Under the pieces are notes generated by a model. That model was not told where the DNA came from. It did no database searches and saw only the letters and a list, made by a program, of their open reading frames with translations. Made by a program: the position numbers and the translations under genes. From NCBI RefSeq assembly GCF_003018255.1, contig NZ_CP027440.1: a DNA stretch of 64,000 bases; one strand, given 5' to 3'. Source of the stretch: Escherichia coli. GTDB taxonomy: Bacteria; Pseudomonadota; Gammaproteobacteria; Enterobacterales; Enterobacteriaceae. Positions 9,260-9,437 of the stretch are shown piece by piece; position 1 is the first letter of the stretch; the number at the start of each line of letters is the position of its first letter.

Positions 9260-9291
9260 TTACGCCCCACAGTGCTGATTTTGCAACAACT

Positions 9292-9318
9292 GGTGCGTCT
9301 CCTGGCGCACCTTTTTTT
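9292..9318 (+). terminator. intrinsic terminator after malM (GGTGCGTC-loop-GGCGCACC then T7)
   Basis: GC-rich hairpin followed by TTTTTTT. Confidence 0.8.
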
Positions 9319-9437
9319 CTCCTCCTGTACTATTGTTGCGTTTTTGTTGCGCATTAGTTCACTTAATTTGCTTTACATCTCCCGTAAATATTTTTCTGCG
9401 ATACAATGCCTTTACGTTATGTAACGGAGAGTTCGGC

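Follow-up and report, generated by a model that had tools for sequence, protein, structure and literature searches.

A compact malM–ubiC junction in Escherichia coli as the probable unoccupied, ancestral site of the yjbI islet

Between malM and ubiC, a 64,000-nucleotide stretch of Escherichia coli DNA (contig NZ_CP027440.1; the whole stretch is referred to below as the window) carries only 178 bp (positions 9260–9437) and no yjbI, the gene that separates the two in K-12. We consider it probable that this short region is the unoccupied, ancestral form of the junction, that a single islet inserted at the site in other E. coli, and that nothing was cut out of the window. The length is counted from the malM stop codon, which ends at 9259, to the ubiC ATG at 9438; the latter start was taken from the RefSeq annotation of JNE23-011, a genome whose junction is 100% identical to that of the window, and mapped onto the window. 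The initial annotation of this DNA, which had put about 180 bp between the two genes and considered yjbI absent, was borne out on both counts: the distance is 178 bp exactly, and a tblastn search with the YjbI protein of O157 gave no match, and hence no YjbI-like open reading frame (ORF), anywhere in the 64-kb window.

Boundaries of the yjbI islet

In K-12 MG1655, yjbI (b4038, annotated as a pseudogene) lies between malM and ubiC, as had been stated in the initial annotation, and the intergenic distance is 2,031 bp; when checked by alignment, the K-12 junction proved not to be compact. Distances of 2,030–2,031 bp, with either yjbI or a gene for a 'SopA family protein' in between, were found in K-12, O157, IAI39, SMS-3-5 and 042, whereas the window lacks this K-12-type distance of ~2,030 bp and has 178 bp instead. 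BLAST break points located the difference at window positions 9318 and 9332, equivalent to positions 1034 and 2901 of the K-12 locus, with 13 bp in the window standing opposite 1,866 bp in both K-12 and O157, and with homology reaching as far as the T at 9318.

This T is the final base of the intrinsic terminator of malM (9292–9318, plus strand), identified by a terminator scan and RNA folding as an 8-bp G+C-rich stem with a 4-nt loop, GGTGCGTCTCCTGGCGCACC, followed by seven Ts; its presence between the two genes had also been anticipated. Directly downstream, the 13-bp variable spacer CTCCTCCTGTACT (9319–9331) corresponds, by the BLAST break points, to the unoccupied site of the 1,866-bp yjbI islet, and is followed by a conserved ubiC upstream region of 106 bp (9332–9437, plus strand), whose conservation extends across 10 species.

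The edges of the islet are identical in all five carriers compared (K-12 MG1655, O157:H7, IAI39, SMS-3-5 and 042), which argues for a single insertion event. Its GC content is 34%, against 52–53% both in its flanks and over the full window, and the K-12 copy of yjbI is interrupted by three in-frame stops (codons 65, 78 and 80). Among carriers the islet is 93–98% identical, compared with 98.3–99.4% for the malM and ubiCA flanks; this lower identity suggests that the islet is old and has been evolving faster than its neighbours. A 6-bp direct repeat, CTTCAT, is present at the islet edges, with a chance expectation of ~1.3% as estimated by simulation. Removal of the islet together with one CTTCAT copy leaves a 12-bp spacer, ATGCTTCATGCG, which has the length seen in the outgroups described below and resembles that of Salmonella, ATCATTTCATGCGA. 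In this form the repeat fits what a single old insertion would be expected to leave.

Polarity, strain distribution and alternative origins

The GTDB species representatives were scanned once with MalM, yielding 80 loci, in 79 of which ubiC was located. This outgroup set included E. albertii, E. whittamii and three other divergent Escherichia representatives, as well as Salmonella, Citrobacter, Klebsiella, Enterobacter and Kluyvera. The gene order was the same as in the window, with ubiC lying 177–250 bp after malM at 78 of the 79 loci, and a YjbI homologue was found at none of the 80. When the window was aligned with 10 genomes from Escherichia, Salmonella and Citrobacter, the malM terminator was kept throughout, and the spacer between its T-run and the beginning of the conserved ubiC block (ATTGTT...) measured 12–14 bp in every genome. 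The sequence of this spacer varies between species; that of E. albertii, CTTCTCCTGTGCC, matches the window's at 10 of 13 positions. The ancestral-type arrangement, in which the terminator is followed within 12–14 bp by the ATTGTT... block, is thus also the one met in the window. A compact junction throughout the outgroups, taken together with an outgroup-like spacer in the window, indicates that the compact junction is ancestral and that K-12 shows a derived state brought about by insertion; yjbI is most likely 'absent' from the window in the sense that it never inserted there, rather than having been deleted.

A simple deletion of yjbI in the window lineage, through illegitimate recombination or an excision event at short repeats, was also considered. 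The 6-bp repeat flanking the islet could mediate such an excision, and partial islet remnants do occur in rare genomes (in strain CAVP880, only 93 bp of the islet are left). However, excision at CTTCAT would leave ATGCTTCATGCG, from which the window spacer differs at most positions while showing the similarity to E. albertii described above. Signs of a deletion scar, namely loss of flanking sequence, an islet fragment or a ATGCTTCATGCG junction, were all lacking at the window junction, where no base is missing from either flank and the spacer is as long as in the outgroups. Since the window spacer is not the predicted excision product, we regard a simple deletion as very unlikely.

A single outgroup locus, that of Enterobacter cloacae DSM 26481 (positions 5940–8905 of locus L045), had an enlarged malM–ubiC gap, of 2,973 bp. 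This gap holds unrelated minus-strand ORFs, among them a fragmented set with an HSMGG serine-hydrolase-like motif and, beside it, an ORF of 375 aa whose N-terminus resembles a signal peptide. The pair may be a lipase effector and its immunity protein, and the enlarged gap suggests that the malM–ubiC junction was hit independently by another insertion in this strain.

To place the window among other E. coli, a 781-bp junction query was searched against 5,426 complete genomes, a contiguous match to at least 80% of the query being counted as compact. The compact junction was present in 1,126 of these genomes (21%); in nearly all of the remainder the query was split exactly at the break point, and a reciprocal search with the islet detected it in 4,289 (79%). 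The genomes with a compact junction include the enteropathogenic E. coli (EPEC) strain E2348/69, presumably of phylogroup B2, and avian pathogenic E. coli (APEC) O78:H4 strains, presumably of sequence type ST117 and phylogroup G. The absence of yjbI is, accordingly, an ordinary strain polymorphism and no peculiarity of the window strain. The possibility that an assembly or sequencing artefact had collapsed the junction is negligible, given its recurrence in 1,126 independently finished genomes and the fully identical junction of JNE23-011.

The window's best 24-kb matches have the compact junction as well, each of them forming one unbroken piece starting from window position 9000. Over the interval 9000–33000, the best match among the 5,426 complete RefSeq genomes was only 99.0% identical over 24 kb, and the next best, at 98.6–98.7%, included APEC O78:H4 strains as well as human isolates from Japan with small genomes. 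The lineage of the source strain has no close representative in this genome set.

Taken as a sequence of events, the favoured explanation would run as follows. In the line of descent of most other E. coli, the spacer that parts the ubiC control region from the terminator of malM would have received, on one occasion, an AT-rich islet of 1.87 kb with its own gene, yjbI; the carriers checked presumably represent phylogroups A (K-12), E (O157), D (042) and F (IAI39 and SMS-3-5). The window lineage, closest to strains that presumably belong to B2 and G, would have retained the pre-insertion arrangement: the malM terminator is predicted to stop transcription of that gene, and the control region of ubiCA comes 13 bp further on. 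Strains with the islet have this terminator on one side of the insert and the 106-bp upstream block on the other. Because both elements are intact in the two haplotypes, ubiCA expression would be expected to be equal in both, and the lack of YjbI would be the only functional consequence of the compact junction.

Several observations weigh against this history. The islet is present in IAI39 and SMS-3-5, and if these strains belong to phylogroup F, a group that forms the sister of B2 plus G in many recent core-genome trees, then primary absence in B2 and G would need either another rooting or spread of the islet between phylogroups by homologous recombination in its flanks. Neither a transposase, nor an integrase, nor a terminal inverted repeat was seen in the islet (its end sequences, inspected by eye with no repeat-finding tool run, showed no obvious inverted repeats), and the CTTCAT repeat, at 6 bp, is short.

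The same presumed position of the two F strains favours a secondary loss by allele replacement, in which a yjbI-bearing ancestor would have been overwritten through homologous recombination with an islet-free donor, either another E. coli or a member of a cryptic Escherichia clade. An empty allele imported in this way would be indistinguishable from an ancestral spacer. Against this stand the flanks of the window junction, which are typical of E. coli: malM and ubiCA share 97.5–98.7% nucleotide identity with K-12 and O157, and UbiC is 96–100% identical to E. coli proteins as opposed to 79–91% for other Escherichia species. Given such flanks and such a UbiC, any donor must have been E. coli itself. 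Allele replacement also takes one event more than simple retention, and we consider it unlikely; retention of the ancestral, unoccupied junction remains the reading that we prefer.

YjbI, the ubiC upstream region and the flanking genes

An intact version of the islet gene is found in O157:H7 strain 86-24, where a 526-aa 'SopA family protein' is encoded between malM and ubiC. The description of yjbI as a pentapeptide-repeat gene in the initial annotation agrees with the Pfam domains of this protein, which include the pentapeptide-repeat families PF13599 (54 bits), PF13576 and PF00805. In addition, the protein contains a SopA central domain (PF13981, E = 3e-50, 170 bits) and is matched by the NCBIfam equivalog NF007264 'SopA family protein' with 1,172 bits; 'SopA family protein' is likewise among the names given to members of its 90% cluster.

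SopA of Salmonella and NleL of enterohaemorrhagic E. coli are HECT-like E3 ubiquitin ligases delivered as type III effectors. Crystal-structure chains of both were matched by O157 YjbI (E = 3e-12 to 1e-9), but the alignment stops at about residue 431–440 of these 613–627-residue constructs. With NF011904, the model of the HECT-type E3 family, O157 YjbI scored 70.9 bits, far short of the 500-bit cut-off. From these comparisons, YjbI probably has no HECT-like catalytic C-lobe.

The espX4 entry of virulence-factor databases presumably corresponds to yjbI. This equivalence has indirect support in the name espX5 that the NCBI annotation pipeline gives to the pentapeptide pseudogene between yjcE and actP in strain 042; among the papers searched, none linked yjbI (ECs5021, Z5636, b4038) to EspX4. 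According to a published survey, espX1, espX4 and espX5 are among the genes absent from the phylogroup B2 lineages ST131, ST12, ST73, ST127 and ST95 and present in other lineages (PMC8844930). Should yjbI and espX4 indeed be one gene, its absence from compact junctions would also be covered by that B2 survey.

The region between the spacer and ubiC (9332–9437) is strongly conserved across genera, from Escherichia to Salmonella and Citrobacter, and this block stays beside ubiC in islet-bearing strains too. It contains a direct repeat, TTGTTGCG, at 9333–9340 and 9344–9351, a -10-like TACAAT at 9402–9407 and, before ubiC, a GGAGAG Shine–Dalgarno sequence (ribosome-binding site) at 9426–9431, the latter two being included in the conservation. 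The initial annotation had placed the ubiC promoter between malM and ubiC. The conserved upstream block speaks for this placement, which we infer to be reasonable, although a strict sigma-70 scan of 9150–9550 called no promoter, and this part of the earlier claim accordingly stands at a predicted level only. TTTACA (9372–9377) was tried as a -35 partner of TACAAT and rejected, as it lies 24 nt upstream, too distant for a standard promoter.

The same block also holds a sequence with the appearance of half-sites for the cAMP receptor protein (CRP), TGCGC-N6-TCACT at 9348–9363 (TGCGC-ATTAGT-TCACT), which is conserved across genera. The CRP site consensus is TGTGA-N6-TCACA. It is tempting to speculate that this sequence, which resembles a CRP site and is centred ~58 bp upstream of the start predicted from TACAAT, might serve as one.

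The flanking genes were delimited as ORFs, all on the plus strand. malM occupies 8339–9259 (306 aa; stop codon 9257–9259; annotated as malM in JNE23-011), and its product shows 99.3% amino-acid identity to K-12 MalM. ubiC, encoding chorismate lyase (9438–9935, 165 aa), follows the annotation of JNE23-011 and E2348/69, and ubiA, encoding 4-hydroxybenzoate octaprenyltransferase (9948–10820, 290 aa), is the second gene of the ubiCA pair, with a product 100% identical in amino-acid sequence to UbiA of K-12 and O157.

Among the closest known junctions, that of K-12 MG1655 (b4037–b4039) has malM, the terminator, the ubiC upstream region and ubiCA as in the window, with 97.5–98.1% nucleotide identity in the flanks, and differs by its 1,866 bp with the yjbI pseudogene in place of 13 bp. 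The junction of EPEC O127:H6 E2348/69, grouped here with the 1,125 other compact ones, shares both the 178-bp length and the 13-bp spacer CTCCTCCTGTACT, along with an identical UbiC (WP_000019227.1). It differs from the window in one base of the terminator stem, in a copy of ISEc13 between lamB and malM, and in a 15-bp in-frame length difference in malM, giving 311 aa compared with 306 aa in the window and K-12. This length difference probably falls in an Ala/Pro-rich stretch (window 9000–9110); in other species, MalM ranges from 300 to 324 aa.

Outside Escherichia, the terminator hairpin and the ubiC upstream block are conserved in other Enterobacteriaceae, while UbiC itself falls to 41–58% amino-acid identity. 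Divergence is much faster in UbiC than in the neighbouring proteins: relative to Salmonella, identities are 49–52% for UbiC, 91% for MalM and 93–94% for UbiA, and relative to E. albertii they are 79%, 97% and 98%, respectively. The ubiC upstream region is, by contrast, well conserved.

Neighbouring sites and implications

Two further intergenic sites in the window are compact where other strains carry additional genes. Between yjcE and actP (37026–37103), the window has 78 bp and strain 042 has 1,619 bp, a second pentapeptide-repeat islet thus being absent from the window; the pseudogene at this position in 042 is named 'T3SS effector pentapeptide repeat protein EspX5' by the NCBI Prokaryotic Genome Annotation Pipeline. 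IAI39 and SMS-3-5 lack the yjcE–actP islet (81-bp gap) yet carry yjbI, and the two islets therefore differ in strain distribution. Between zur and dusA (17004–17136), 133 bp in the window stand against ~1.7 kb in 042 and SMS-3-5, which have a gene for a 'DUF2713 family protein' there; no NCBIfam model matched this protein. Upstream of malM, the lamB–malM interval (8102–8338) contains palindromic units resembling repetitive extragenic palindromes and bacterial interspersed mosaic elements (GCCGGATAAGG...GCATCCGGC). Their copy number differs from that in 042, where BLAST segments break at 8145–8211 and subject coordinates overlap.

The polymorphism at the malM–ubiC junction is itself already known, being visible in RefSeq annotation as the presence or absence of the 'SopA family protein'. 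For annotation, the practical point is that a 'deletion of yjbI' should not be reported for junctions of this kind, and the compact form is of help in placing the window within a B2/G-like background. Since neither the malM terminator nor the control region of ubiCA is altered, ubiquinone synthesis should be unaffected. The finding is in this respect of little consequence: at the malM–ubiC junction, K-12 would show the derived state and the window lineage the ancestral one.

A broader and more tentative proposal, to which we give a minor share of belief, is that the islet entered once, by a mechanism that duplicated a 6-bp target without a transposase, and then spread between phylogroups by recombination in its flanks, the window representing a 'pre-effector' state at the yjbI, DUF2713 and espX5 sites. 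If this were true, the region would offer a set of naturally empty and filled sites in which orphan effector-like genes could be followed as they settle in core intergenic regions.
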